A stretch of DNA of 64,000 nucleotides, from NCBI GenBank assembly GCA_964106645.2, contig OZ067045.1; one strand, given 5' to 3'. The position numbers and the translations under genes are program-made. Numbering within the stretch: the stretch's first letter is position 1; every line of letters starts with the position of its first letter. Origin of the DNA: Podarcis pityusensis. Lineage: Eukaryota. Shown here piece by piece: positions 5,948 to 63,038 of the stretch. Below the pieces are notes generated by a model. It was given only the letters and a program-made list of their open reading frames with translations, had not been told where the DNA came from and searched no databases.

Positions 5948-6563
5948 TTGATAGCTGACTTCAATTATCTGATAAATTTGAGCTCCTGACATGAGAGCCT
6001 TTTGCGGTCCAAGGGCCATATTCCTTACCTGGCAACCTTCTAGGGGTCTCATGGCACAGATGGGCAGGGCCAGGGACAAAAGTGGGCAGGCAGGGCCAGG
6101 GGTGTCTGTTTTAACTTTTGTGCAGTGGGACAATTTTCTTTCTTCCTCTCCTTCTCATGCACCCACACACCCCTCTCTTATCTTCCATTCATCAAGTCTC
6201 AAGGACACATTCCAGTGAAGCAGAAATACTCAAGGAAGGTGTGAAGCCAGGCTGGTTGAGGGGTGTGGCCTGGGGAGAATTCTGAGGGCCAATCAGAAAG
6301 GCCCATAGGGCCACATCTGCTACTTAGCCCAGCCTGAGGTTCTGTATGCCTGCTCCAGTGCAAAGCAAGGAAATAAATCAGGAGGCGGGGCTATGCAAAT
6401 GATAGGGTGGTCCTAGGCAAACAAGAGGGTGGAGCTGTTCAGGTCATAGCTGCAGGCTTGGCTCCCATTGAGGCCAGAGAACAGGTCTGAGCATCACATA
6501 TGGTCTATGTCTGTGCCTCATGCTGGCTTTTTCTTCTCTGCTTCTCGTCCTACGCCTTGTTAG

Positions 6564-6784
6564 AGTGCGAAGTTTCAGAAGAATCCAGCGGAGAAGCTGA
6601 AATAGAGCAAGAGGCCTCCGATTTGGAGGACCTGCGGGAGCTGCACCCGGGTTTGCTGGTTTACAAGGCTTCGCGGGCCAGGAATTTGCCTGTGATGGCA
6701 GAGGCCCTGGCGCACGGGGCGGACGTCAACTGGGTGAACGACGAGGATGAGAACAAAACCCCGTTGATCCAAGCCGTAATGGGG
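6564..6784 (+). CDS. ACAP3: ACAP3 internal exon (ECEVSEESSGEAE...LHPGLL...KTPLIQAVMG; first ankyrin repeat)
   Basis: gttag|AG acceptor, GGG|gtaagg donor; ORF 6500..6865 frame. Confidence 0.94.
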
Positions 6785-7848
6785 GTAAGGCTAACAAGCC
6801 TCAGCTATTTCAATGGCGGCAGCGGCGGTATTTATTTATTTCGTAAAAATTTATACACCGCCTGATTTTTAAAAAAATTAAATAAATAAAACCTCAAAGA
6901 GGGTTATGAAGAAAGATAAATCAGAGACATTCATCACTAAGAAAAATTAAATGGATTAAAACTTGCATCAACTTTCTAGACATCTGGGTTGGCAAGAATG
7001 TTTTTAGCAGGCTCTGAAAGGAGTACAGTGAGGGTCCCGACCTGATATCAATAGGCAGGGAGTTCCAAAGGGTAGACACTGCCACACTGAACAATCGAGT
7101 TCTTACAAATACAGAATGGGCATCATGTCCCACAGGCGACAGTGCCAGTCCCGCCAATTGAAGTGGTAGAGTGGGTGCAAATGGAGGTAAGGCCAGGCCC
7201 CCCTGCAGAGGGTGGGGAGTTGCCTGGTACACTTGCCCTGGGTCTCGGAGGCCTAAGTCAGTTGTGGGGGGCCTTCAGGGACTGACTGGTTTTTTTGTTT
7301 GAGTTTATAACTTTATTCTAGCAAGATTCCCGCCCTGGGCCTCAGACAATCTTTGCATGGGCCTGGGTAAGGTGATCTTAAAGGTAAATGGATCCCAAGT
7401 TGTTAAGGGATTTATATAATGCTGTTGGATTTTTTCTCACATTTCTCCTCCTCAGAGCAGACCCACTGAAGTTAATGGACCGTGATTAACCTGTCTGTCA
7501 AGGGGGTTTACAACATTAAAATACAATAATATCTATCGATACACACGCACACACATATGTACAACATAGTTAAGAACAGCAGCAAAGCAGCAATAGATAG
7601 TAGTTGATTAAAAAGAGAGATTATATTGTGAAGACCTTAACTTTTGTGGTGTCTCCCAAGGAACTCTTGCAATTGTAGCTCTGATAAAGGTACCAAGGGT
7701 TCTGTAGAGGGGCAGCAGTCTCCTCAGAAAACTACAACTCCCACGGCTCTCTAGCAAGAAGGGGTGCAGATTACACTTGCCAAAGTCTGTTTGGTGCTCC
7801 TGTAGTTTCTTTCTCCCATCTGATCTCTCTCCCAATTGTCTCCATCAG

Positions 7849-7958
7849 GGCTCCTTGATAGCCTGCGAATTCTTGCTCCAGAATGGAGCAGACGTTAACC
7901 AAAGAGATATTCGAGGGCGCGCACCTCTGCATCATGCTACGTATTTGGGCCACACTGG
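7849..7958 (+). CDS. ACAP3: ACAP3 internal exon (GSLIACEFLLQNGADVNQRDIRGRAPLHHATYLGHTG; ankyrin)
   Basis: atcag|GGC acceptor, GG|gtgagt donor. Confidence 0.95.
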
Positions 7959-8387
7959 GTGAGTCATTCGGCGCTTGAAGCTACCAGGAAGGGGTGCCTT
8001 AGCTTAAGCTGGTATATATCAGACCTGGCTATCCATGTACTAATTGTGTCCTAGCTTGACTACTGCTATGCATTCTACGCGGGGCTGCATTTGAAGATAG
8101 TTCAGCATCTTCCATTGGTGCAAAATGCAGCTGTGTGGATGCTGAGGGGTTCAAAGAGGTCCAATCACACTTGGTTGTCTCCAAATAAACATGAACCCAT
8201 CTAATTTGTACTTTCCAAAACAATCCTCAAGCCGAAACATAGCCATCCGCCGAAATTTGCAGCTCTCCAAATCTTGCAATGTAGTTCTCCTCTCGAGTAA
8301 TGTGTTCAGAAGTGTACCTGTTGAGGAAGGCTCATTTTGTCTCCCTGACTGGCTGCCTTTGACAGCTCAGGAGTTTGGAGGAGGAGT

Positions 8388-10941: not shown

Positions 10942-13187
10942 TTTTTTTTTTTAATTTCTTTTTATTGAGTTTCTCTTTAAAAAAACAAAACCAAAAGAAA
11001 AAAAACAAATCAACAAATCCAAAAGAAATATCCATACATAGCACAAAGATAACATCCATTACAGTTCTTTGTCTTCTTCCTTGAATCTTTATATCTTTAG
11101 ATATTTAAACCTTTTCTCTACACACCCATTGACATCCTTCCCTCCCGATTTCCGGCTTCTTAATAAAAATTCTTTCTTTTTTCTGCAGCTATTAATTGTT
11201 AATGGTTTACGCGTCGTAAGACTTATATCAAACCTGCTATAGTTTTTAAGTCTCTGTAGTTTCCTTCAATGTATACCATAAATTTATTCCAGCCACTAAT
11301 AAACTTTGTATTTTTTTGGTTTCTGATTTTTTTGTGTCATTTTTGCTAAATCAACATATTCATATAATTTTGTTTGCCAATCTCTGATCGTTGGGGTATT
11401 TGGGCTTTTCCAGTTTTGTGCAATTAATATTCTAGCGGCGGCTGTGGCATATTGGAATAATGTCTTATCTTCTTTTTTGATTTCATCCCCAATTATTCCT
11501 AGTAAGAAGGCCTCTGGTCTTTTAGGGAAGGTATATTTAAATATTTTTTTTAACTCATTATAAATAAGTTCCCAGAACTTCATTATTTCGCAGGTCCACC
11601 ACATATGGTAGAAATTGCCTTCTTTGATTTTACACTTCCAGCAAGCCTTATTTCCTGTTTTGTACATTTTCTCTAGTTTTGCCGGTGTGATGTACCACCT
11701 ATACATCATTTTTTCCAAATTTTCTCTGAGTAAGACACATGCCATGAATTTCATTCCACTAGTCCATAATTTCAACCACTTATCATATTCTATATTGTAT
11801 CCCAAGTCCATTGCCCATTTTGTCATGACCTCCTTTATTTCTTCATCTTTAGTGTCCCAATCTAATAATATGTTATACATTTTAGATAATAACTTGGATT
11901 TACCTTCAATTATTTCTATCTGGAATTTAGATTTTTTCTCGTTTATCCCTACTTTTTTGTCTTCCTTCCATACTGCGTTTATTTGATGAAATTGCAGCCA
12001 GCCTGTTAGTTTGTCTTTCAGCTCCTCATATGTTCTCAATTTCCATCCACTCTCTGATCTTATCAGTAGGTCTTCATATGTCAGTCTTTCTCCTTCCATA
12101 TTTGCTTTTTTGGTTGTTAAAATATCAATTGGGGATAACCACCAGGGTGTTTTCCATTCCAGAAGTTTTTTATTTTTCTCCCAAACTTCGTATAGTGGCC
12201 CTCTAATAATGTGGTTTGAAAAACCTTTATGTACCTTTTCTTTATTTAGCCACAAATAGGCATGCCAATCAAACCTGTTGTTGAAGCCTTCTAAGTCTAA
12301 CAGATTGGTGTCTTCCAAATTTATCCAATCTCTGATCCAGCAGAGGCAGGAGGCCTCAAAGTATAACTTCAGATTAGGTACCGAGAATCCCCCTCTTTTT
12401 TTCCGATCTGTAAGTAATTTGAATCTAATTCTCGGTCTTTTCCCTTGCCATATAAATTTCGAAAGAGTTTTTTGCCAATCTTTAAACACTGAGGAACCTC
12501 TGATCACTGGGATGTTTTGGAACAAAAATATCATTCTTGGGAGTATGTTCATTTTTATTGCTGCCATCCTTCCCGCCCACGAAAGTTTTACTCTGTTCCA
12601 CGTATCTAGATCTTTTTTAATCTCCTTCCATGTTGTGGAATAATTATCCTGAATTAGATTTATGTTTTTTGTGGTTAGCCAAATTCCCAAATATTTTATT
12701 TTTTTAGCCACCTTGATTCCATTCTGTATCTCCAGTTTTTCTCTTTCATCTTTTCCCAAATTTTTAGTCAACATTTTTGTCTTTAATTTGTTTAATTTAA
12801 AACCGGATAGTTTGCCATATTCTTCTAATAACTCCAAGGCCTTACTAACGCTTTTCTACGGTTCTTCTAGGGATAGCATCAGATCATCTGCGTATGCTTT
12901 TAGTTTGTATTCCTTCGTTCCAACTTTGATCCCTCGAATCTCTTATCTTGTTCGTTATTACCTCTAATGCCATAATGAATAAAAGCGGGGATAGAGGGCA
13001 TCCCTGTCTTGTTCCTTTTTCAATTTTGAATGAATTTGTTAGATTATTGTTTATAATCAGTTTAGCAGATTGGTTCGAATAAATCGATTTTATTCCTTCC
13101 ATAAATTCGCCCTCTAGCCCTGCTTTCTCCATACTTTTTAATAAGAACAGCCATGAGACATTGTCGAATGCCTTCTCTGCATCGATG
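10942..13187 (-). mobile_element. 5'-truncated L1 LINE (ORF2 RT to C-terminal zinc knuckle, 3' UTR, poly(A))
   Basis: DAEKAFD, RQGCPLSP and YADD RT motifs; CWKC...HMWWTC knuckle; poly(T) on + at 10941; TSD AAAAA(G/C)AATTCT at 10930-10941 and 13188-13199; frameshift near 12940 and a stop near 12858. Confidence 0.93.
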
Positions 13188-13246
13188 AAAAACAATTCTA
13201 AATATTGTTAAATTTGTCTGGGGCAAGTCTACCTTTACACACGATT

Positions 13247-32552: not shown

Positions 32553-33433
32553 GACGGGTGACATTTTTCTCCCGGGACATTAGGCATGACTTCCTTGTCA
32601 GTTTCTCGGATCTAGACCTCTTTGAACCAGGTGAGAAAATTATGTCATGGACCTTGCTATAAAGTGATATTTATTGGGTACACGTTTATAGCTTTGGGGC
32701 CAGCTGCCAAATCAGATATAGTAGTTGGTTCCTGAGAAATGACAAAGTAGAGCCAAGGTATTTATATGCATAGAAAGAAATATGCACACAGTCTACAGTA
32801 GGATCAGGCGGTGACTTATCGGACCTCCAGTTAGCTGTGTCATTGCGGCTTTCTGGGAGGTAAAGAGGGAGGCATGAGGTCAGCATGGTGCAAACGCAAC
32901 ACCAACTGACCCTATCAGGTCCTCCCACTAGCGCAACTGCACCTCCGCAACATCGCACTCCAACATTGCAGTTACGACTGCACCGCTCCCCCCAAATAAT
33001 CAGCCATGACTCTGCTGCTCAGAGGTCAGGGGAACGTTGCTGCCCCACCGTGCTGTCTGCGCGGAACGCCCCAAGTTCAATCCCTGACATCTCCTGGTAG
33101 GGTTGGGAATGAAAAACCCTTTGAAAACAAAAACCCACCATACTCCACCACAATTGTTCGCTCCAAACCTCAACTCTCCACAGGCCTCCAATGTCATTGC
33201 AAAAGCTTCCGCACTTGCAAAGGCTCGTGGGATTTCTAGACACTATTTTTGCACCATTTTCGCCATTTGCGTACTCTTTTAGGGCCGTGTCCCTCGCTTT
33301 TCGTGCCACAGCCGGGTTCGCTGTGATGCGCGTGCGCACAGTTGCGAGTCCCTCGGACACATGTAAATGGGGAGCTGCCTGCACTCTGCTCCCAATTCCA
33401 CACAGGCAAACAACATGGAGATACCGATAGTAT

Positions 33434-33439
33434 TTTATT
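33434..33439 (-). terminator. Candidate poly(A) signal of the sPLA2 gene
   Basis: AATAAA on - about 720 nt past the stop codon; another lies at 32670-32675. Confidence 0.4.
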
Positions 33440-34159
33440 TGACTCAAATGCATATTATTACTATTGCCATTTTGAAAGGGTTTTATGACATCCAATCAGC
33501 AAAATGGTCCGCATTTCCACTTGGTAGGTAAATTCTTGGGGGAAAAGCAGGGATGCAATTCTTGTGCAAGAAGAAGAGCGCCCTAAGATATGAGGCACAC
33601 TATCCGTCAGGATTAAGCACCCAGGCTATGAGACAAGTCGAGCAAAACAGAAAACAAAAGCAGCTTGAGGGGTAGCCTCTTCAATGGAGTACAGGGGGAG
33701 ATATTGTGTCCAGTGCTGGTCCTACTCAGAGCAGACCTATTGAAAACAATGTACATGGCTAATTTATGTTTGGTAATTCCAGTGGGTCTACTCCAAATAC
33801 AACCCAATGGGATTACCCTGGGTTGTACCCAATGTCTGTCCTATTCAGAGTAGACCCATTGAAGTTTACTGGGCATGACTAACCTAGATCCATTAATTTC
33901 AGTGGGTCTGCTCTGAGTAGGTCTTAGATACAACCCATGAACCTTCGCTTCAAATAAAATAGAGGGAACATAAACGGCAACTTAATTTTCTAAATGCTTC
34001 TCTTGCTTTCAGTTAACCTAACACAATGCTAAGAACCCCAAAATAATAATATAGGCTGAGCCCCCGCCCCTTTTAATAATCAGGCAGGCAGGGCTCCCCC
34101 CTGAATCAACCACCCTACATGGGATATCCTCTGGTTCTGCTTCCTGTTAAAAATGCAGC

Positions 34160-34305
34160 TCAACAAAATGGCCGCTGTGCCCTGCAGTTGTTCGCTGGGT
34201 GATTCTTGAACTGGAGGTTATAGGCAAAGAGATGCTTCCGGAAGCAGCTGGCCGCTTTTTGGTCGCATTCGCACACGAGCTTCTCGCACCGGTCCCGCGA
34301 CTTGA
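34160..34305 (-). CDS. sPLA2 exon 4 (CECD helix, C-terminal extension ending in Cys, stop)
   Basis: ctgcag|TC acceptor; TGA at 34162-34160. Confidence 0.93.
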
Positions 34306-37300
34306 CTGCAGAGAGAGGAGAAAGGTGGTAACCTCAGCATCAGTTTCCGCAAAGAGGGGTGCTTTGAAACGGGGGAACGGAAATAGAAAAGATTTGAACC
34401 AGCTCTCTGGCTTGACGCCGGACCAACTCACCGCATTTAATTTTATCCCTCTGGGGGTAGAACCTGTACGAGAGGGTGCTTGGGTTGCAACCGAACATCT
34501 CGGCCTTGTTGTAGCAGCAGTCGTGGCTGTGGCAGCACCTGCGTGTGACGTGAAAACGAGAGAGCAAGGAATTGCTATGAATCAGGCCCATTTTGGTGCC
34601 ATCTTAGTTTTTTCAGAACTCAACATTCTGGAGCACTGTGGGTTGTTGTTGTTGTTAAAGTGCATCTGATATTTTAAAACGGTGAATGCCGTGTAATTTT
34701 CTTTTGCCCGCAATGGGCTTAGTTTGGAAAAACTAAGATGGCGGCCACAAGCGTGGTCTCCGGCGGCCTGTGAGATTTCCCCAGTATCGCACAGCATGTT
34801 TCTGATGACAGCATATTCAAGCAGAAGTCTCCCTCAGCCCTACCTGAAGATGCCAGGGATCAATCCTGGTACCTTCTGTGTGCAAAGCAGATGCTCTACC
34901 ACTGAAAGTGTCTGTGGTATAACCCTACTGGGACCTGGTTCATATCATAATGCAGGTGGAGGCGGTTTATTTGAATTATCCTCCGCATGAAACAAGCTCC
35001 TTGTCTGTAGAAAGCAAGCATCTCAGAGAGGCTAGGCAAGACACTTCCTCCCAGATATGCTAGTTTGGTGCATGCAGGGATTCCATGTACCGTATTTTTT
35101 GCTCTATAACACGCACCCGACCATAACACGCACGTAGTTTTTAGAGGAGAAAAATCTGTAGGCATGCCACCCGTAGGCATTCCCTCCATAACACGCACAG
35201 ACATTTCCCCTTACTTTTTAGGAGGAAAAAAGTGAGTGTTATGGTGCAAAAAATACGGTATTTCTTTGTATGGGAGAGGCACGCAAATATGGAGGTCCCC
35301 CATCCCTGTTCTTGAGACTCCCATTGTTGGACATTTTCCATATCTGCTATTGGGTCCCTGGAGCACAGAGTCACATGAAGTGGCAACCAACCTTGCAGGA
35401 TTTAACAGGATTTATTTGAAATGCATATGCAGGACAAAGGTACAGAGCGATAAATTCGCAATCTGCACACCCCAGTCAGGGTGCGCCCACTTTTTATACC
35501 CCTTAGAATGCATAGACACGTGTTCACATGTAAAACATGTGATTTACACTACTAGTAATAAGATATAGCTTTGTTTCTTGTGTTACCCTCCTCCTTTTCA
35601 GTTCGCCTCCTTTTCAGCCCCCCCCCCCCCAAATCTGGGGTTACAATAACACTCATTCAATCTTGCTTATTATCTCTACCTGCCTAAGCCAGACATTCCA
35701 GAGAGAGAGGCCCATTTTCACTGTAACATCTAAGCAAGAAGAAAAAGCCTTGTTCTCCTGGCTGGTGTAAAAACCTCCCTCCCCCCTTTAAGGAAGGGGT
35801 TTGGGCATAACATATGAGAGAGGAGAAAATGCCTCAAACAGTTTTTGGGATCATATAGAGAACAATACTCTAATGGCCCTTCACCATGACTTGTAAAACC
35901 CCTGAACTGTAAGAGAATGATGATAGCCCAAGAGGTGAGCAATGCCTGGTAATCTCAGGTGAGCCTCACCTGTCGATGGCATCCACGGGGAAGCCTTGAG
36001 TCCCTGCCCCACAGTGACACCCATAGTTGGTAAAGTTGGCCAGGGTGAAGGTGACGGTGCTCATCTGGATCATCTCATTAAACTGGGAGGCAAGGCCGGT
36101 CACCAGAGCGGCTCCTGAAAGAGCAACAGAGTCTTGTTTGGAGGGAAGAGCAAAGAGACAGGGAGCAGGGGGTACGGATTGAAAAAGCAAGGGAGTTGAG
36201 GTGGGAAAGCACTGTTTGTGGTGGGAATAGCAGTTGAGGTCTCAAGCCTTCCTGAGGGGTGGGGATACCTTTTCCCCTGCTGCCTCATTCCCTCAGAGGT
36301 AAACCGTTCTCAGCCACTTGCTGGCAGTAAAGGTAAAGGGACCCCTGACTGTTAAGTCCAGTCACAGACGACTCTGGGGTTGCGGCGCTCATCTCGCTTT
36401 ACTGGCTGAGGGAGCCGACATACAGCTTCCGGGTCATGTGGCCAGCATGACTAAGCCGCTTCTGGCGAACCAGAGCAGCACACGGAAACGCCGTTTACCT
36501 TCCCGCCGGAGTGGTACCTATTTATCTACTTGCACTTTGACGTACTTTTGAACTGCTAGGTTGGCAGGAGCAGGGACCGAGCAATGGGAGCTCACCCTGT
36601 TGCGGGGATTCGAACCGCCAACCTTCTGATCTGCAAGCCCTAGGCTCTGTAGTTTAGAGGTAAACCGTTCTCAGCCACTTGCTGGCAGTAGGTAGGGCCA
36701 AAGCCACCTCCTTTTCCTTCTTCCCTCTGCCATCCCCTTCCTTTCCCTCCCTCCCTCTCTCCCTCTCCCCCCCCATCTTTCTCTCTGCTACCCCATTTCA
36801 TTCTTTTTCACGGCATCCTTCTATCTCTCTTTCTGCCACCCCTTTCTCTCCTTTCTTTCCACCTCTCTTTCTGCCATTCTGACACCTCCTTTCTCTCTCC
36901 CCACACTGATTTAAATTAGGCTGAGGATCACAGGTAGTCAGTCCTAAGGCTGCTGGTTGCCCAGTCCTGGACTGAGAGGTTGAGCCTGTGAAAGTACTGG
37001 GAATTAGATCAAGCACGCCGTGGCATGGTGAGCCTGGTGAGAGACTGGTGAGCCTGCCTGGAGGGCAGAAGTAACCTGGTGGCAAAAGAAGATGACTTTA
37101 AACCCCTGCCTAGGGGTATTAGCTATGACTGTGAAAGGAACACAAAGATTCAGTGGCAGTATATCCCTGAATACCAATTGCCAGATTTTTCTTTTCTTCC
37201 TCTTCCCACATTTGGCTGCAAAATGCACTGCCCTCAGGCTGGTTTCTTGATGGCAATGCCATGAAGCCAAATCAGAGTGAGGGCAGTCTGAGGGCTTGTG

Positions 37301-37494
37301 GGGGAGGGGAGGTGCTTGCCATGAGTTGCCACCATTGCAGGGACCACGGTGGAAGCAAAGAGACCCCATCCCAGAGATCCCTCTTCCAGACAACAGCAAC
37401 AGTTCTGGAAAGAACTCTCAGCTCTACTGAACTATAGCAGAAAAGTAGACTTACCACAAGCCAGAACCAGTAGGAAGATTGTAACGTTCTTCAT
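34160..37494 (-). CDS. Secreted phospholipase A2, group II-type, complete 4-exon gene, 145 aa: join(37455..37494, 35970..36114, 34432..34538, 34160..34305) on -
   Basis: Spliced translation [145 protein letters not shown]; all introns GT-AG; 438 nt total; Ca2+ loop, His48/Asp49/Tyr52/Asp99 equivalents and 14 Cys present. Confidence 0.93.
34432..34538 (-). CDS. sPLA2 exon 3 (active site CCHSHDCCY)
   Basis: cgcag|G acceptor, G|gtgagt donor; ORF 34340..34591. Confidence 0.94.
35970..36114 (-). CDS. sPLA2 exon 2 (N-terminal helix and Ca2+-binding loop YGCHCGAG)
   Basis: tttcag|GA acceptor, AG|gtgagg donor; ORF 35966..36190. Confidence 0.93.
36330..36655 (-). mobile_element. Sauria SINE in sPLA2 intron 1, with a 35-bp flanking duplication
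   Basis: same family; direct repeat at 36295-36329 and 36656-36690. Confidence 0.9.
37455..37494 (-). CDS. sPLA2 exon 1 (signal peptide [13 protein letters not shown])
   Basis: ATG at 37494, G|gtaagt donor, hydrophobic core; TATA box about 90 nt upstream. Confidence 0.85.
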
Positions 37495-37583
37495 GGGTGC
37501 AGCTGAACGGAAGCAAGCCAAAGAGAGCCTTGTTTCGCTGTCAAAAAAAGGGCTCTGTGCAATCGCTTGGGTGTCTGTGTCAG

Positions 37584-37591
37584 TTTATATA
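37584..37591 (-). promoter_or_regulatory. TATA box (TATATAAA) of the sPLA2 gene
   Basis: plus-strand tttatata, about 90 nt upstream of the ATG on -. Confidence 0.6.
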
Positions 37592-53806: not shown

Positions 53807-54202
53807 TTAGCTGTTGAGGTGCATATCTACGCTATGCTCTTTCCGGCGCTTGAATCCATTCAGCACCACACTTGGGTAGAGCTCAGGCATCTGGTATGTG
53901 CTATATTTTGTGTCTTGGCATGGGGTGCCAGTGCCATCACTGGCGTAAGGTTTTGTCACATCCTGGGTGCTGGCCAGGCCTTCCTCCACATAGCGGTACT
54001 TCTCCAAAGTCAAGCTTATGCTCGGGATGTTGGGGGGTCGAGACACCTTATGCGTCCTCTTGGCCGTGAACTGACGGTAGAGGAAGATGAGAGACAAGAT
54101 GGCGGCATCCACGAGGAACTCCAGCAGCTCCACCACTGACAGCACCGATGACCCAAACCAGAGACTCCAGTTGCTTCCCATGTTGGACATCATCTGGGAT
54201 TC
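53807..54202 (-). CDS. SCNN1D: SCNN1D last coding exon (TM2 SNMGSNWSLWFGSSVLSVVE and cytoplasmic tail)
   Basis: cctag|GAA acceptor; ENaC pore helix; no PPPxY motif; convergent neighbourhood with ACAP3 matches the human SCNN1D-ACAP3 synteny. Confidence 0.92.
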   Translation of the reverse strand, partial: ESQMMSNMGSNWSLWFGSSVLSVVELLEFLVDAAILSLIFLYRQFTAKRTHKVSRPPNIPSISLTLEKYRYVEEGLASTQDVTKPYASDGTGTPCQDTKYSTYQMPELYPSVVLNGFKRRKEHSVDMHLNS

Positions 54203-54364
54203 CTAGGGAAAACATAGATTAGACATCTGATTAGACCAGAGGCGGGGAGTCCTTTGCAGAGTGAGGGCCACATAGCCTTCTGGGGAGCCGCATGCCAGTG
54301 GTGGGAGGACCAGAGGCATAAATGGGTGTAGCAACAAACGTCAGTTTTACTCTTTGTACAAGTA

Positions 54365-54595
54365 CAGTGGTACCTCGGGTTACATACGCTTCAGGTTACG
54401 TACGCTTCAGGTTACAGACTCCGCTAACCCAGAAATAGTACCTCGGGTTAAGAACATTGCTTCAGGATGAGAACAGAAATCGTGCAGCGGCAGCAGGAGG
54501 CCCCATTAGCCAAAGTGGTGCTTCAGGTTAAGAACTGTTTCAGGTTAAGTACGGACCTCCGGAACGAATTAAGTACTTAACCTGAGGTACCACTG
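54365..54595. mobile_element. Tc1/mariner-type MITE (same family as 3815-4056)
   Basis: TIRs and TA TSD. Confidence 0.85.
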
Positions 54596-55671
54596 TAGAC
54601 TAGTTTCTACACACACCCCGGAACCTCTCTCAATCCTCCTTCCAGGAAAGCAAGAGACGGGATCAGAGTTCAAGGACACATTCCACCCAGGCCAAAGCAC
54701 TTGGGGAGAGTGTAAAGTAGGGCTGGGGAAGGGAGTGGCCTGGGAAGAGTTCCTAGGGCCAGATGGAGAGGCCTGGGGGGCCACACTTGGCCCCTGGACT
54801 TTAGCTGCCCCAGCCCTATGTTAGACTCTATATGTTGCAGCCAACATTACCGTAATTTCCCACATGGAGTCAACCCATCAAAGTTTATGGATCTAACTTA
54901 GTCATGGCCATTAATTTTTGTGCATCTACTCTGAGTATGACTTAGATGGATAGAATGTGTTTCTCTTCCGCAAATATCTTCGTTTACCTGCCGAGTTGTC
55001 CTTTCTTTCTGTTCCTAGTTTTATTTCATTTGTAATTGCTGCTTGTCTTCCTTACGGATTTGTTTGCGGAAGGGCAACTTTATGTGGCCTCTGCTATCAG
55101 TTTCAAAGAACTTATAAAGGCTAAGAACATTATGTGTGTTTTTTCTCTCCTCCCTCCTAATCTCATTTCCCCTTCTGTTGTAATTTTTAGATTCTAAGAC
55201 AGGGGAGTGGCGTCTAATTCCTGATCATTCTAAGGTGCTCCGGGAGAATTTGTTTAGCTGAAGAACAAGATGCAAATAGAAATGAATTCCTTTCTTTGGT
55301 AATAGTTGTTTCAAACTGCTGTTTAAGTTGGGTTGGATCCAAGTTGACAGCATAATTCTCTGCATGCTTGTTCACTAGCACAGTAATTGGGTTCAATGGG
55401 ACTTACTTCCAGGTAAGCATGAATATTATGGCTGCCTATTGTTAGCTGCAGCTGCTTGCCATGGAAACCAGTGGTAATTAACTCATGAGGAAGGTGGTGA
55501 TCCAAACCCCACTTACCTGGGAGTATGCCCCAATGAATTCAAGAGGACTTACTTCTGAGTAGATACTTGGTAGCAGTCACTTAGCTATACTCAGAGTAAA
55601 CCCATTTCAAGTGAATGAACATGACTAACTGAAGTTAATGTGGGCCGAATAAACACACAACTTCAACTTAC

Positions 55672-55747
55672 TGTATATTCAGGAGATTCATCCCAAGAAT
55701 TGTAGTTTAGTCGCTCGTAGTAAATGTTCACCTTGGCAATATCTTTT
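55672..55747 (-). CDS. SCNN1D: SCNN1D exon (KDIAKVNIYYERLNYNSWDESPEYT)
   Basis: 76 nt; ENaC AKxNIxxxxLNY...ESP motif. Confidence 0.92.
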
Positions 55748-56493
55748 CTGAAACTGAGGAAAGAGAGTGTCGAGATCAAGTTAGTCCAGTGTAAATTTGT
55801 CCGTCCCCCCCCAATACATTTTATTACAGTTTGAAAGAAAATACATGAAGGTTAATATCAAATACACAGGATCATTTTATCAAAGTTTTTTTTTAAAAAA
55901 AACATAATTAAATAAAAACAAACCAAAATGAAGAAAAGAAATAAGAAAAGGGGGAAGAAAAAAGCAAGAGGAGGAGGAGGAAAAAAGAGAACTTCAAATT
56001 CTCCATCTGTCAGCTATGTATAAACAATTACCCAAAACATCCACTCCAAGATAACTGTCCAGTGTAAATTTGATTGCGGGAACTTTTGACAAAATTGCGG
56101 AGAGACACTGCCAGTCAGTGTAGGCAGCACTGAGTTAGGTGGACCAAACAACCTCACTCTGTGTGTTCCTTTGCTCCAGATGGTTGAGGACCTTTTGTTA
56201 AAATGCAAACTGAACTGGTACAGTCAGAAGCAAGGACCAGTGAATGCCACAGTTCACCCTCCCCATCTAACTATGCACAGGACTACAGTTGGACTGAACA
56301 AAATAAATTTGGTATAATGCCATGTAAGTGGACTTTCCTTGAGGCTACAGCTCCTACTCTTCAAAATTTAGCACTTCACCATAGATGCCAGTTCTGAAGA
56401 CAGTTGCCAAATAATCTTGCATTTATGGTGAAAGAGAAGGACTTGAAGGCAGCAGCAGCAGCACCCCCCAGTAGAAAATATAACGTGACTAAC

Positions 56494-56549
56494 CTGTCGC
56501 CGGTGACATTGTATCTGTTCTGGGCTTCCAAAGCTTTGTGAATCCATGT
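56494..56549 (-). CDS. SCNN1D: SCNN1D exon (TWIHKALEAQNRYNVTGDR)
   Basis: 56 nt, tttag|ACA acceptor, AG|gttagt donor; phase fits neighbours. Confidence 0.88.
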
Positions 56550-57210
56550 CTAAAAAGGAAGACACAGGAACAGGGTTCAAAATCTGGAAGCAGACGCAGC
56601 AGATGGTTCAAGTGGCATTGTGCCAGGGATGGCATAGGGGAGCTGCCAGCTGTCCAAAATATCAGCCAGGCTTGCTCTTGGGTTCGTAACGGAAGCTTGC
56701 TTTGCAGTGGAGCTTAACATGCCATTGGGATAAAAATGACCACCTATGAAGGCCTTTGGGTCAAGCTGCTGTTAAAGGCAGGGAAGCACTGTGCAGTAGA
56801 GTAGTTGGCAAATTGTAATAATAAAAACCGATACATACAAGCAAGGCTGAAGTAATGCGACTATCAAGTTTTAAAAAATATATTGAACATTCAAAACTTT
56901 TTTGTTTGCACTTAGAAGTTTCATCAATATGCTTAATATATTTTCTTTGCTCTCATTTTTTAAAAAAAGGGAATTTGACATCACTATGGAGGACCTGTTG
57001 CACCCTATCAGATGTTTAAGGAGGCAGAAGAAACAGTTAAATTCTCCTCCTTTTAGGAACACACACCATAGGTGACTGGCTCCCTGATTGGTTGCATGTT
57101 CACTGCAGCAGGCTCCCTGATTGGTAAGTGACTATCATTAGCCAGCTTGGGAGAACATTGAAAATTTAGCATCCTCCTCCACTCTGAACTCCACATAGGT
57201 TATACTTTAC

Positions 57211-57268
57211 CTTAGATTTGTTTGAGGGCCACTTTGCATATCCTGCTGAAAGTTTGTACCAAGTCTCT
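57211..57268 (-). CDS. SCNN1D: SCNN1D exon (ETWYKLSAGYAKWPSNKSK)
   Basis: 58 nt; ENaC YxLSxxxxxWPS motif. Confidence 0.92.
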
Positions 57269-58087
57269 CTGCCAAGAAGACAAGAATGTAAAAAGGTTAC
57301 GAGGAACCCTGCTGCATCAGAACAAAAGCTACAGTGAACATTTTATGGTCCCGTCTCCTTTTCTATACTTTGAGATGTGGCGGCCATTTTATGTCATGTC
57401 ACACCCCCATGGCAGCCAGTTGGTGACTGGAACCCACAGTACGTTCTCAACATTCCCAAAGTGTCCACTAGCCTGAAAAGGCTGTAATGCCTGGATACCC
57501 GTATGCATCCTAGAGTGATCTACATGCAGGTCGCACTTACTGAACACAACGTGTTCCCTGGAAATTGTTCGTTAGGCGACCATTCAGCTAACAAGATGAC
57601 GGTTTCCATTATTTCCTATGTGAACATTTCTGATCCATGATTTTCCTCCCCCCTCCCACCATGGTTTCTTCCTTAAATTGCTGCAGCCAACCAGCAAGGG
57701 AGAGACAAAGGAAAAACTGGTTTGTTCGAACTCTCCTGCTCTGCCCTGATTTATCCAATCTCTCTCCCCATTCCTTTTCTCCATGGTTTCTGCCTGAAAA
57801 TGGTTGCCGCTGACCAGCAAAGCATAAACAAGTATGGAAGTGGGCAGACTCTGGCTGTTTAGATATCTGAATCAGCTGAGCATATAGCAAGGTTTGGGCA
57901 ATTTTTTTTGTGTTTGGATAAGTGAATCTTCGCATAACAAGCAGACCAATAGTGGGACCTGCATGTATGGCTCAAAAAAGAATGAGGAGAGGAGGTAGTG
58001 GGCCAGTCAATGAAAAGGCACATATCTGGTCCATGCTAAGCTTGACCCTGCTACCATTCGAATGCGTCAAATGCCTTTGCTACTCAC

Positions 58088-58178
58088 TTGCATGGTCTGT
58101 GGCATTTGTCAAAACAGGATTCAGTATGAGTGGCATCCTGATTGTACATGCGATTGTACAGGAGATAGAAGCAATGAC
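58088..58178 (-). CDS. SCNN1D: SCNN1D exon (GHCFYLLYNRMYNQDATHTESCFDKCHRPCK)
   Basis: 91 nt, tgtag|GT acceptor, AA|gtgagt donor; conserved thumb cysteines. Confidence 0.9.
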
Positions 58179-58890
58179 CTACAGGAGGGGAAAAATAAGA
58201 GGAACAAGTTCAATAGGATACAGCTGCCACAGGCAAATAATTGAGGACAGCCCTGTTCTGCCATCATGAAGGGTCCTTGTCCAAACCAACCCCCAACATG
58301 GTCTGATCAACATTTCCAGTTTGCAGCTGAACTTAGTTTGAGTGGTACTTCCTGCTTCAAATTGAACCCACTTTCATCAGCACTTCCTGTTTCCAATTTA
58401 GCAGTTTGGCTGTCACTTCCTGTTTTCAGCTGAATACAGTTTGATCAGCACTTCCTTCTCCTAACTGAACATGCTTTGCTTGAATGATGTAGGGAGAATC
58501 CCAAGGACCAGACTGTGAAAGGCCACATCTAGACCCTGGGCCTGTAATTCCCTACCCCTGAGTCGGCTCATACAAAGTATTCACATTATGTGTCCTCTTT
58601 GGTGTTCTCTCTCTCTCTGTCTGTCTTGTTGTATAAGCATCCACTCTAGTTCAGTATGCCAGGAGGTAGCCAACATAGTGCCCCCCCAATTTTGTTGGAA
58701 CTCCCATCAGCCCCAGCCAATGTGGCCAATGTACAAGAATGATGGGAGCTGGAGTCTAGCAACGTTTGCAGGCACCACATTGGCTGTCATGGGGGAACAG
58801 CTGGCCAGGCTACATATAGACTCTTTGCCATTGGCCAGATCAAGTCATTCTGAACACATTTAACCACGTGTGTGTGTGGCTTCTCCTTAC

Positions 58891-59008
58891 CCCAATTACG
58901 ATGCTTGTTATAGTTGCAGTACTCCGTTCCTGGAGGCAGTGGGTAGTAATAGTACCCACAACCACAGTCTTCAATCATTTTCCTCTGGAAACATGAATGC
59001 AAGCAAGC
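58891..59008 (-). CDS. SCNN1D: SCNN1D exon ([39 protein letters not shown]; Cys-rich thumb)
   Basis: 118 nt; ENaC/ASIC family signature CxxSCFQxxMxxxCGC. Confidence 0.95.
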
Positions 59009-59607
59009 CTGTGGGGCAGTGAAATGGGGTGGGGAGACAGAACAAAACAGAAAGTGCTGTAAGTTAAATTTCTCTGGTGCCTCAAGCCTTTTGCTTCAGA
59101 TCCACTAGTGGGGTAGATAGGTGTTAATTTAATGGGAAGGGCTATCCCAATTGATTCTGCCACCCACGGTGAAGGAGAAGAGCCAAACCCACCATTGCAA
59201 AGCAATTCCCCCCAACAGAATGCATGCTTGCTTGGCATTTGCAACAACACATGCGTGCTTATGGAAACTTTGCCTCTGTACACACATCTTTGCACACATT
59301 ACTTGGCTGGAGAATTGCACTGCACAATTTGGAATGGGGCAAATTCTGAAGGATGCTTGCTTTTTCAGCTTACCTCGTCAGTTCAAAAACTGCAAAAAAA
59401 ACTAGGTAGGTTTGCCTTAAGATCGAAACCAGAATCAAATTTCTCCCCTCTCTTCTTTAGCCTGAATTTCACACCCTGGTTTGAATTAACTAGGCAGATC
59501 TTTGGTTGTTCTAATTATTTGAGTGATCCAACACATGAGAAGGGGCAGGATCTTAAGAAGGCAGAAACGAATAAAGTGGGAAAACAAAGGCTCTGTTTCA
59601 GCTGTAC

Positions 59608-59706
59608 CTGCTGCGTGTATGTGCTGTTGTATATGAGCTTGACAGCTACATCATCGCCGTCCTTTGTACATGTGCCATAATTTCCGCCTAAGCGAGTTAC
59701 CTCGTC
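59608..59706 (-). CDS. SCNN1D: SCNN1D exon (DEVTRLGGNYGTCTKDGDDVAVKLIYNSTYTQQ)
   Basis: 99 nt, phase 0-0, GT-AG. Confidence 0.93.
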
Positions 59707-60389
59707 CTGCGTAGTTGGAGGGAGGAAACAGCATATCACTTGGAGTTTAGCATACAGGCCAGAATCAATTCAACATAAAGAAGCTAAACCTGGAAGAATC
59801 TCTCCCCTCTCCACCACTAAAGCAACATCAGCCCCACAGGAGGCCCTTGCAATTGCCTGTCGCCAGTTATTGAAAGTCAACTGTCTGGTGGTGGCTGGTG
59901 CCCAGCAGGTTTGGTGGGGTGGAACTCGGAGAGCCCAAACATTTTGACATTCCCCCAAATTGGGATTGCAACAAAAAACCCATTTGGAATGCCAGTTCAA
60001 AACATCAGGGATGGGGAGGAGAGGACCTTTTTTCAGAGTGACAGTTGCATTCATTCTGGGCAAACTTCTGGGGGCGGGGACAAAGCTAATAGGGGGCGTG
60101 GCATGGGATGTAAGGTTTACTTTCGCTAGTTTATATACACATTTACACAAACCCCACTCTATGCGCCATCCAGGCAGGTAAGAGACACTACCAGAGTTCA
60201 AGGGTGCATTTAGCCAGGTAAAAGCAGGGATGTGAATCAGGGTGAGGGGTGTGTGGCCTGGGAAGAGAGTGCCAAGGGCCAGATCAGAAGGAATTTGGCT
60301 CCCGGGCCTGAGGTTCCCAACCGCTGATTAAAACACTTTTACCCTGCTCTGCCTCCAGCCAGAAAGCCTCCCAGACACCCCGCCACCCC

Positions 60390-60825
60390 ACATTTCTTAG
60401 TACAAAAGTATTGATCTGATGTGTAGAGATCTTCCCTGTTCTGCTTAGGTCAAGAGTGTTCTGGAAGGTTTCTTTCTATGTGAAAGAAACAGGCAGAAGG
60501 TTCTTGTTTGGGTTATTCCTTCTGAGAAGCTGAGTACAGCTGGTTGAAACTGGTTCTGTTATCCTTTCTGTCAAGGTCATGCTGACTCTATCTCTTTGTT
60601 CTGGTGTGGCGTTCTGTACGGTTAGTGTTATGGTTCAGCCTTATTATAAGTTCTTGTTAAGTTTAAGTTAAGTCTGCTGCAACTGGATTTCTTATGGACA
60701 GTGCCAATTCTGAATGTATTGGATTTGTGACCATTATGCTCATTTGCCTTCCGGAGCAGTAAAGCTCTGTTGGATGAAGTACAATTGCCTCTGGTCTATT
60801 TTGGGGAACTCTGCAACGTGTTTAG
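60390..60825 (+). mobile_element. Solo LTR-like repeat (copy 2) in a SCNN1D intron
   Basis: clear similarity to the reverse complement of 45697-46190. Confidence 0.6.
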
Positions 60826-60897
60826 GTTTTTTCCTCCTCCACACACAACACATGCCAAGGTTTTTCCTGTTGCCCATTCAGACCCCCCGGTGCTCAC

Positions 60898-61061
60898 CTG
60901 TGTGATCCCAATGGTGGTTTGAATCCCCGGCCGAATATCAAACCCCTCGTGCTCTAAGAACGCGGTCTGGTTGTGGCTGTGGATCATCACCCTCACGCCC
61001 GCCTTGGTGGACAGCAGCGGGATGTGGTCCTTTTGCTCCACTTTGAGGATAAGGGAGAGAC
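60898..61061 (-). CDS. SCNN1D: SCNN1D exon (GLSLILKVEQKDHIPLLSTKAGVRVMIHSHNQTAFLEHEGFDIRPGIQTTIGITQ)
   Basis: 164 nt, GT-AG; alpha/delta ENaC-type extracellular beta-strand sequence. Confidence 0.93.
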
Positions 61062-62934
61062 CTGGCACCAAACAAACACAAGAAGGTAAGAAGGACCTGC
61101 TGGATGGGGCCAATGGCCCTCCGAGGAAAAAGCAGAGGGATTCGTCGTCAAAGCACAGCTCCGTCCAAGCAGGAAGTGACATCAGTCAGTTGCTAAACAG
61201 GAAATGGCATCAGCGTGTGGCCAAAGCTCTTTTTATTGCACATGCCCCTCAAGGATTGCTCTGATGGTGGGAGGGGGCCGAACCCTGTTCAAAATTTCCA
61301 CCTACATAGTTGGCCTCTGAGGTAACAATGAGCAGCTGTGGAAGCAACGGCTGCCCACACGAGAGAGCAATCGCTTCTGTGTTGCTCACTATGATGTCAG
61401 AGACACCCTCATGGGCACAAGACCTCACATATATCATCATCGCTAATGTGTAGGAATGACTCAGGGCCAGCCCAAGACATTTTGCCGTCTGAGGCAAAGG
61501 ATAAGATGATGCACTCCATATGCAGAAGACCGCTGGGCTAGCAGTTGAAGTTTACATTGGTGATGACAGGGAAGCTTTCCCCAACACACCTGAAGGCAGT
61601 TACATAAGAAGCTGCCTTATACAGAGTCAGACCTTTGATCTAGCTAGCTAGCTCAATATTGTCTATTAGCTTAAGAGCTCCAGAGACCATTTATTTCAGT
61701 GCGCATTTAAATTGCTGGTGTTTTCTCGCCCTGCCCTTTAGATCACACATTTGAATTGTTTTACAGTTGGTATTGTGTATTGTTTTAAAGTACTAAAATC
61801 CTCGATTTATGATAGCTCAGTTGCCTTCGTATATTCAGCTTATCCTACAGGGTGATCCACAGTTAAACTATGGAAATCGTTGAAAGAGTGATAGGCACCA
61901 ACTTGGATGGTATCAAAAGATTGGAGAGATTCGTAGAGGAAAAGACTATCAACAGTTATTAGCCACGATGGCTATGCTCTGCCTCCACAGTTAGATGGGC
62001 CACTGGCCTGATCCAGAAGGCTCTTAGTATGTTATAGGGTGACCCCACCTTCTCCTCATTCTGCCCCCCTGAGCTGCCATTCTGGGCCTAGATCCATTGG
62101 GTGTACCTTGCCCTGGCAGCAAAAATCAAACTAGGCCCTGTCAGCTTGAAGTCTGCCTGCCTGCCTGCCATCTTAAAATTTGGTATTGCTCTTCTGTTGA
62201 GAAAGCTATAACAATGAAAACCAGAACACAGTTTTGCTGTTTTACAAATATCTCTTCCTTTAGCTCCCCTCAGGGTCATCTATTGTTTGACCCTGCCCGC
62301 ATTCCCTCCCTGACCTTTCCCCTTAGGAACAGCACATTATGGGAGAGAGGTTAAGCTTTTATACCTGGGTCATTTTCTTGATAAAAACCACTCCTCAGAT
62401 CTGCTATTTGCAGCAATTTTGCGGGGAGGGGACATAAAGGTGCCCATATGATACCCGTATATTGTCCCTCTGCTGGGCAAATAGCAGCTTCAAAGGTTAT
62501 TTTAATCAGGCAAATGACCCTACTGGAAAGGGTTAACCCACCCATTTTCCAGTGTCACAGCCCTGATCTGATTTGGGACATAACTGGGTCTAACGACACA
62601 CTCTGAAGACAGTAATAAAACAGCAGGTTATGTATGCTGGAAAACAAATGCACACCCAGCCAAAGTGACAGCTACCCCTTCCCTCACAGAAACCTCTGAC
62701 TGTGAAAATTCCGTTTCTGATAATTTTTCCCTCTTGGTTCACAGCATGTACTTTGACTGATTCACCAGCTGAACCAAACTGTGTCTGATCTTCATTGCCT
62801 GAACATCTAGATTTATCTCTATAGTTTAAAGCAACACGTCTGTGGAACATAATGAGCTCTGTACACAGCCTAACCCTTGCAAGCGACCAATAGTCACACT
62901 TATCTGCCTGCACATTCTTTTTCTCCGTTCTTAC

Positions 62935-63038
62935 CGTAAACAATTCCAGGCTTCAAAGCTTTCCAGAACTCATCTGTCCCGCCTTTATTAAAAGTGTAAC
63001 AGCTTCCATAGACGGGGTGATGAAAGTGCTCAGTTTCA
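62935..63038 (-). CDS. SCNN1D: SCNN1D (delta-ENaC) exon (ETEHFHHPVYGSCYTFNKGGTDEFWKALKPGIVY)
   Basis: 104-nt exon with ENaC HPxYGxCYTFN motif, GT-AG; gene continues beyond the window end. Confidence 0.92.

Follow-up and report, generated by a model that had tools for sequence, protein, structure and literature searches.

A single-copy Podarcis orthologue of amphibian otoconin-22 beside an SCNN1D-like gene retains the phospholipase A2 catalytic residues

Sequence comparison showed that a phospholipase A2 (PLA2) gene located beside an SCNN1D-like gene in the lizard genome is the single-copy orthologue of amphibian otoconin-22. The gene is real, intact and transcribed. Its retained calcium loop and active-site residues suggest that the product is probably a secreted Ca2+-dependent phospholipase A2 working by the His48/Asp99 mechanism. 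Neither the gene nor its orthology group is new, both being already annotated and named; what remains of interest is an enzyme-type otoconin-22 in the non-placental amniotes, set beside a catalytic loss in amphibians that, from the residues compared, is apparently derived.

Gene structure and transcription

The window, which is the whole stretch of 64,000 nucleotides that was analysed, corresponds to G000:C8:71,920,001-71,984,000, and the PLA2 gene lies within it at C8:71.954-71.958 Mb, on the minus strand. The preliminary description had proposed four GT-AG exons of 40, 145, 107 and 146 nt splicing into an open reading frame of 145 residues, and this structure was reproduced from the sequence. 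Coding exon 1 (37455..37494, 40 nt, minus strand), which is placed by sequence and by the skipping of intron 1 in transcript run X2, encodes the first half of the signal peptide. Exon 2 (35970..36114, 145 nt, minus strand) contributes the end of the signal peptide, the N-terminal helix, the sequon at N40 and the calcium loop YGCHCGAG, and exon 3 (34432..34538, 107 nt, minus strand) the equivalents of His48, Asp49, Cys50, Tyr52 and Tyr73. Coding exon 4 (34160..34305, 146 nt, minus strand) holds the Asp99 equivalent, a C-terminal extension ending in Cys and the stop codon. The introns measure 1340, 1431 and 126 nt, all are GT-AG, and their phases are 1/2/1. The spliced coding sequence of 438 nt specifies 145 amino acids plus the stop, with no internal stops. 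A putative TATA box, TATATAAA, is located ∼90 nt upstream of the ATG (37584..37591, minus strand) as a consensus match only. The 3' UTR (33424..34159, minus strand), with AATAAA at 33439-33434, was delimited by a contig of run X2 spanning 33424-34305. A 172-aa antisense frame at 34151-34669 gave no Pfam match.

The protein matched the phospholipase A2 family in Pfam (PF00068, E=4e-32). It contains 15 cysteines, of which 14 belong to the mature chain and one (C13) to the signal peptide; the signal peptide itself is inferred to be 20 residues long from the register of Gln4 (Q24). The calcium loop YGCHCGAG occupies residues 44-51, and His67, Asp68, Cys69, Tyr71, Tyr86 and Asp112 correspond to His48, Asp49, Cys50, Tyr52, Tyr73 and Asp99, respectively. 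The chain ends in Cys145 and has Met rather than Cys at position 11. The calcium loop, catalytic equivalents and terminal Cys were all found where the preliminary description had placed them, and its reading of the cysteines as a group II pattern was borne out, with Cys50 and the C-terminal extension Cys present and Cys11-Cys77, the pancreatic loop and the propeptide absent. On the catalytic side, the group II features seen in the lizard protein are the His48/Asp99 dyad, Asp49, Tyr52 and the Gly30/Gly32 loop. The closest solved structures are those of group II secreted PLA2s (PLA2G2A and 2E; PDB 1ayp and 5wzo; E ∼1e-28), which have in common with the lizard gene the 14 cysteines, Cys50, the C-terminal Cys, the lack of Cys11, four exons and the full catalytic set. 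An AlphaFold model was of poor quality (mean pLDDT 65), with the signal peptide merged into the first helix, and no conclusion is drawn from it.

Transcript data were examined for 8 of the 24 listed runs, which are presumed to be RNA, derive from related organisms and have their tissues coded. Spliced transcripts, whose presence the preliminary description had left to be checked, were found as exon-joining contigs in three of these eight runs (X1, X2 and X7). All three introns are skipped in run X2 (study P2), in which the contig end at 33424 is 10 nt past the AATAAA; introns 2 and 3 are skipped in run X1 (P1), and the junction of exon 3 with exon 4 is present in run X7 (P4). Four of the five coding differences listed from related-species contigs are synonymous. 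Spliced coding exons were not seen in X6, X8, X9, X15 and X18, which returned mostly intronic repeats, a result that carries no weight on expression. Introns 1 and 2 contain high-copy repeats (window 36320-36660 and 35080-35260) that attract thousands of contigs and explain a large part of the word share found in the run search.

Orthology and genomic setting

The window exons match, without a difference at any whole codon, a Podarcis lilfordi protein annotated as 'otoconin-22-like' (P0020, CAI5782860.1); three codons separate them from P. muralis. The exon 2 query returned six proteins, five labelled 'otoconin-22-like' and one 'Phospholipase A2'. Squamate orthologues were found in lacertids, an amphisbaenian, a gecko, a cordylid, anguimorphs, iguanians, pythons, a boa, vipers, elapids and colubrids, and others in four crocodilian species, platypus, marsupials, caecilians, salamanders and frogs. 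Bird, turtle, placental and fish orthologues were not found among the matches listed by word-limited protein searches and by cluster listings that covered 15 of 17 and 15 of 31 members of two clusters; as the protein library, built at 50% identity, merges members of the clade, absence by taxon is weakly supported.

In the IQ-TREE phylogeny of 52 rows, all 17 otoconin-22 rows formed one clade at 100/100, in which the lizard gene is placed with frog otoconin-22 and amphibian, squamate and mammal subgroups can be distinguished. A FastTree phylogeny of 159 domains gave the clade a support of 1.0, with no unlabelled domains inside it. Mature identity is 57-87% within the clade and at most 43% to anything outside. 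The alligator row groups with the mammals (98/85), contrary to the species tree. The clade was drawn, on a long separate stem, outside a weakly supported group of II and X (80/76), and a clade of otoconin-22 with group II but without group X was not rejected (p-AU 0.18). Unlike the group II genes, the lizard gene combines this long stem and low outside identity with a location away from the OTUD3 cluster. Otoconin-90 (OC90), a PLA2-fold ear protein with two inactive domains and an acidic composition, falls in a separate clade. The Xenopus laevis protein P0037, named 'phospholipase A2 group IIE S homeolog', sits in the otoconin-22 clade and not with IIE, so that its label is likely a naming error, judging by this placement. 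In the platypus orthologue (P0077), Arg replaces Cys51 while the catalytic set is kept; decay or a sequence error is possible.

The preliminary description had offered an ancient second group II locus lost in mammals as one of two origins. The antiquity was confirmed; the loss is contradicted by 14 platypus and marsupial records and could apply to placentals at the most. Its suggestion of novelty was overturned by a condition that it had itself set, since 'otoconin-22-like' was already in use as the name of this orthology group. According to Koludarov et al. (2020; bioRxiv 10.1101/583344), 'otoconin-22-like' is, of the genes outside OTUD3-UBXN10, the one most closely related to Pla2g2; where present it never exceeds one copy, and it is under strong negative selection. 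The lizard gene resembles it in being single copy and outside that interval. Neither ACAP3/SCNN1D flanks nor catalytic residues appear in the main-text passages of that work that were consulted. Otoconin is unmentioned in PMC7767849, and the available parts of PMC9496343 hold nothing further on the otoconin-22-like gene. A literature search, with most subscription journals outside its reach, found no paper joining a phospholipase A2 with ACAP3 and SCNN1D, nothing on the function or activity of the amniote gene and no lizard data on otoconin-22 as an otoconial protein.

The neighbours of the gene were then compared with the location between ACAP3 and SCNN1D given in the preliminary description. 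To the left, ankyrin-region exons at 6491..7962 on the plus strand matched ACAP2/ACAP1 in the PDB (E 2e-17). To the right, the 3' exons of an SCNN1D-like gene (53807..63031, minus strand) lie upstream of the PLA2 gene on the same strand, and a marsupial SCNN1D model gave seven exon matches at 54053-63031 in the window. The neighbours are an ACAP-family and an SCNN1D-like gene; the former is presumably ACAP3, going by the usual gene order. The human SCNN1D-ACAP3 interval is not known to contain a PLA2 gene. Synteny outside the lizard genome was drawn from one marsupial, by way of the Dromiciops RefSeq model P0084, which fuses SCNN1D (PF00858 at 27-517) to PLA2 (PF00068 at 656-761). Because this model runs SCNN1D into PLA2, the Dromiciops PLA2 is downstream of SCNN1D on the same strand, as in the lizard; the fusion itself is probably an annotation read-through. 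A broken LINE ORF2 fragment is located between the ACAP and PLA2 genes (window 11296-13207, minus strand), with an RVT_1 match in its 107-aa frame and none in its 519-aa frame.

The window and its 10 kb flanks contain one PLA2 copy of the otoconin-22 type. Among 20 genome matches, the other exon matches scored 14-36 bits as against 69-85 here, with the exception of one intronless gene. In an sPLA2 frame without introns (L001, G000:C1:85,215,013-85,215,291, minus strand), which encodes 187 aa including 16 Cys, the calcium-loop, His-Asp and CECD motifs are intact. The canonical PLA2G2 cluster comprises four genes at G000:C8:62.257-62.287 Mb, on the same chromosome and ∼9.7 Mb from the PLA2 gene, which places the latter outside the cluster as previously proposed. 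The cluster was identified by its last gene, which matches Podarcis IIE, together with an adjacent RING gene; a search for the OTU family detected no OTUD3 beside it. Over C8:62.24-62.31 Mb the cluster is bounded by the RING gene and, at its opposite end, by a RhoGAP gene, and MUL1-type GIDE and UBX genes (C8:65.49 Mb and 65.66 Mb) are ∼3.2-3.4 Mb away. Squamate clusters have been described with a MUL1 flank, from which this arrangement differs; a lacertid rearrangement may be the cause. On either side, the cluster also has a long open frame of LINE ORF2 with endonuclease and reverse transcriptase (1077 and 1236 aa; L024:2-3232 and L029:6292-9999).

Catalytic residues in amniotes and amphibians

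Residues were surveyed in 94 records (63 amniote and 31 amphibian), a set that includes isoforms and same-species duplicates and is not independent; an alternative 3' isoform (P0004) and a partial model (P0016) were left out of the counts. Charge was computed for the 91 of 94 records with 115-130 mature residues. All six scored calcium-loop and catalytic residues were kept in 62/63 amniote records as against 0/31 amphibian records. Gly30, Gly32, His48, Asp49 and Asp99 are present in every amniote record (63/63), and Tyr52 in 62 of them. Every amphibian record carries Gly32Asn (31/31), His48 is lost in all 24 frogs, and Asp49Ala occurs in all four salamanders and in half of the frogs (12/24), while the caecilians retain His48-Asp49. 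The amniote proteins are basic, with a median pI of 8.5-8.8 and a net charge of +1 to +8. The amphibian proteins are more acidic (median pI 5.4-6.4), with a net charge of -2 to -5 in frogs. A single sequon was found in 58/63 amniote records and two in 30/31 amphibian records, the one at position 21 being present in 93/94 records, amphibians included.

Frog otoconin-22 (Pote et al., 1993, as cited in PMC3038909 and PMC2939893), represented by Xenopus (P0036/P0037) and the bullfrog (P0033), has 60-64% mature identity to the lizard protein and belongs to the same clade. The two have in common the cysteine frame, the position-21 sequon and the C-terminal RPFC. They differ in that the frog protein has Asn32, lacks His48 (24/24), is acidic and mostly carries two sequons, whereas the lizard protein has Gly32, His48 and Asp49, is basic and carries one. 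The lizard protein thus lacks the traits of otoconin-22 as an inactive aragonite matrix protein, namely loss of catalytic or calcium-loop residues and acidity, as it keeps the six residues and has a pI of 8.67.

Amniote conservation reaches at least 98% at only 39 of the 108 non-Cys positions. Seven amniote-fixed positions are changed in most amphibians, five of which fall in the calcium loop (51-53) and the dyad (67-68); a naive chance figure of 0.0008 for this comparison ignores the relatedness of the records and is given no weight. Gly32 is present in both the lungfish and coelacanth PLA2s, along with His48 or a Cys-x-x-x-His/Asp frame, the lungfish record being without Asp49, and human IIE has the full catalytic set. 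Given these residues, the active state is likely ancestral. The split between amniotes and amphibians was not found in print.

Possible roles and evolution of the amniote protein

The His48/Asp99 chemistry is established for the PLA2 family. If the lizard protein follows it, removal of the 20-residue signal peptide would leave a protein of ∼14 kDa that is basic (pI about 8.7), has seven disulfides and is probably N-glycosylated; this protein would bind Ca2+ through Asp49 and the backbone carbonyls of 28, 30 and 32 and cleave the sn-2 ester of phospholipids. Two features count against an enzyme. Position 69, which is Lys or Tyr in most sPLA2s, is Ser in the lizard protein and variable across amniotes, and the position-21 sequon presumably lies near the membrane-binding face.

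The most serious rival, though we consider it unlikely, is that the amniote protein is still mainly a matrix protein of the inner ear or endolymphatic sac that templates aragonite, as in frogs, its catalytic residues being kept for folding, for Ca2+ binding or for an additional function in membrane vesicle release as otoconia form. True orthology with otoconin-22, the sequon common to frogs, the restriction of expression to three of the eight runs examined and the absence of birds and placentals from the matches listed are all consistent with it. In the literature, otoliths are aragonite or calcite in reptiles, whereas avian and mammalian ones are calcite; since reptiles may have otoconia of aragonite, the lizard protein could plausibly act in the ear. 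However, the opposite charge of the amniote and frog proteins argues against it, the amniote-specific constraint sits at the catalytic sites, and the gene is kept in marsupials and platypus, yet mammalian otoconia are described as calcite only. The enzymatic and ear-matrix roles are not exclusive.

It is less probable still that the protein, with little or no catalytic activity, serves as a ligand, for instance of a PLA2 receptor or heparan sulfate, and has an active site that is retained but little used. The variable position 69, the conserved sequon near the presumed interfacial face and the conserved RPFC motif would fit such a role, but Gly32, His48 and Asp49 are invariant across squamates, crocodilians, the monotreme and marsupials and were lost in amphibians. 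The other origin put forward in the preliminary description, here taken as a DNA-level move out of the OTUD3 cluster that is confined to lizards, or else a venom- or defence-related copy, is very improbable: the shared chromosome, the nearest solved structures (groups IIE and IIA) and the Pla2g2-like four-exon layout favour it, but relocation is ruled out by the cross-tetrapod otoconin-22 clade, forced grouping with Podarcis IIE (the only cluster gene constrained) was rejected (p-AU 0.0007), orthologues extend from caecilians to marsupials with the same SCNN1D neighbour in Dromiciops, and a single genomic copy, 75-84% identity across lizards and snakes and the reported strong negative selection give no sign of a venom role.

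On the reading of the lizard product as a secreted enzyme, the otoconin-22 gene would have arisen next to SCNN1D in the tetrapod ancestor or earlier, and the enzyme would have been retained in amniotes. In the amphibian ancestor, Gly32 would have been replaced by Asn and fixed, followed by the loss of Asp49 in salamanders and of His48 in frogs, and these losses would have led to the mineral-matrix protein found in the ear, which is more acidic and carries two glycans. From the residue comparison, the frog matrix form is likely derived. Placentals likely lost the gene, and birds and turtles may have done so too. We give an even chance to the broader proposal that squamates, crocodilians, monotremes and marsupials carry a catalytically intact sPLA2 group, lost by placentals, which would represent the enzymatic ancestor state of otoconin-22, and that amphibians converted it stepwise from enzyme to matrix (Gly32Asn first, then loss of Asp49 or His48, acidification and a second glycan), independently of otoconin-90.

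For the origin of group II and venom PLA2s, on which the preliminary description had expected the gene to bear, the known picture is unchanged, as the gene was already annotated and named. For reptiles, platypus and marsupials, the retained residues suggest that the label 'inactive otoconin homologue' misleads; these animals may have an additional working sPLA2 that is absent from human and mouse. The split between amniotes and amphibians offers a natural series for the change from an enzyme to an ear-stone scaffold. If the stepwise amphibian conversion is true, it would open to direct testing both the change from enzyme to matrix and the idea that crystal form is chosen by the matrix protein.
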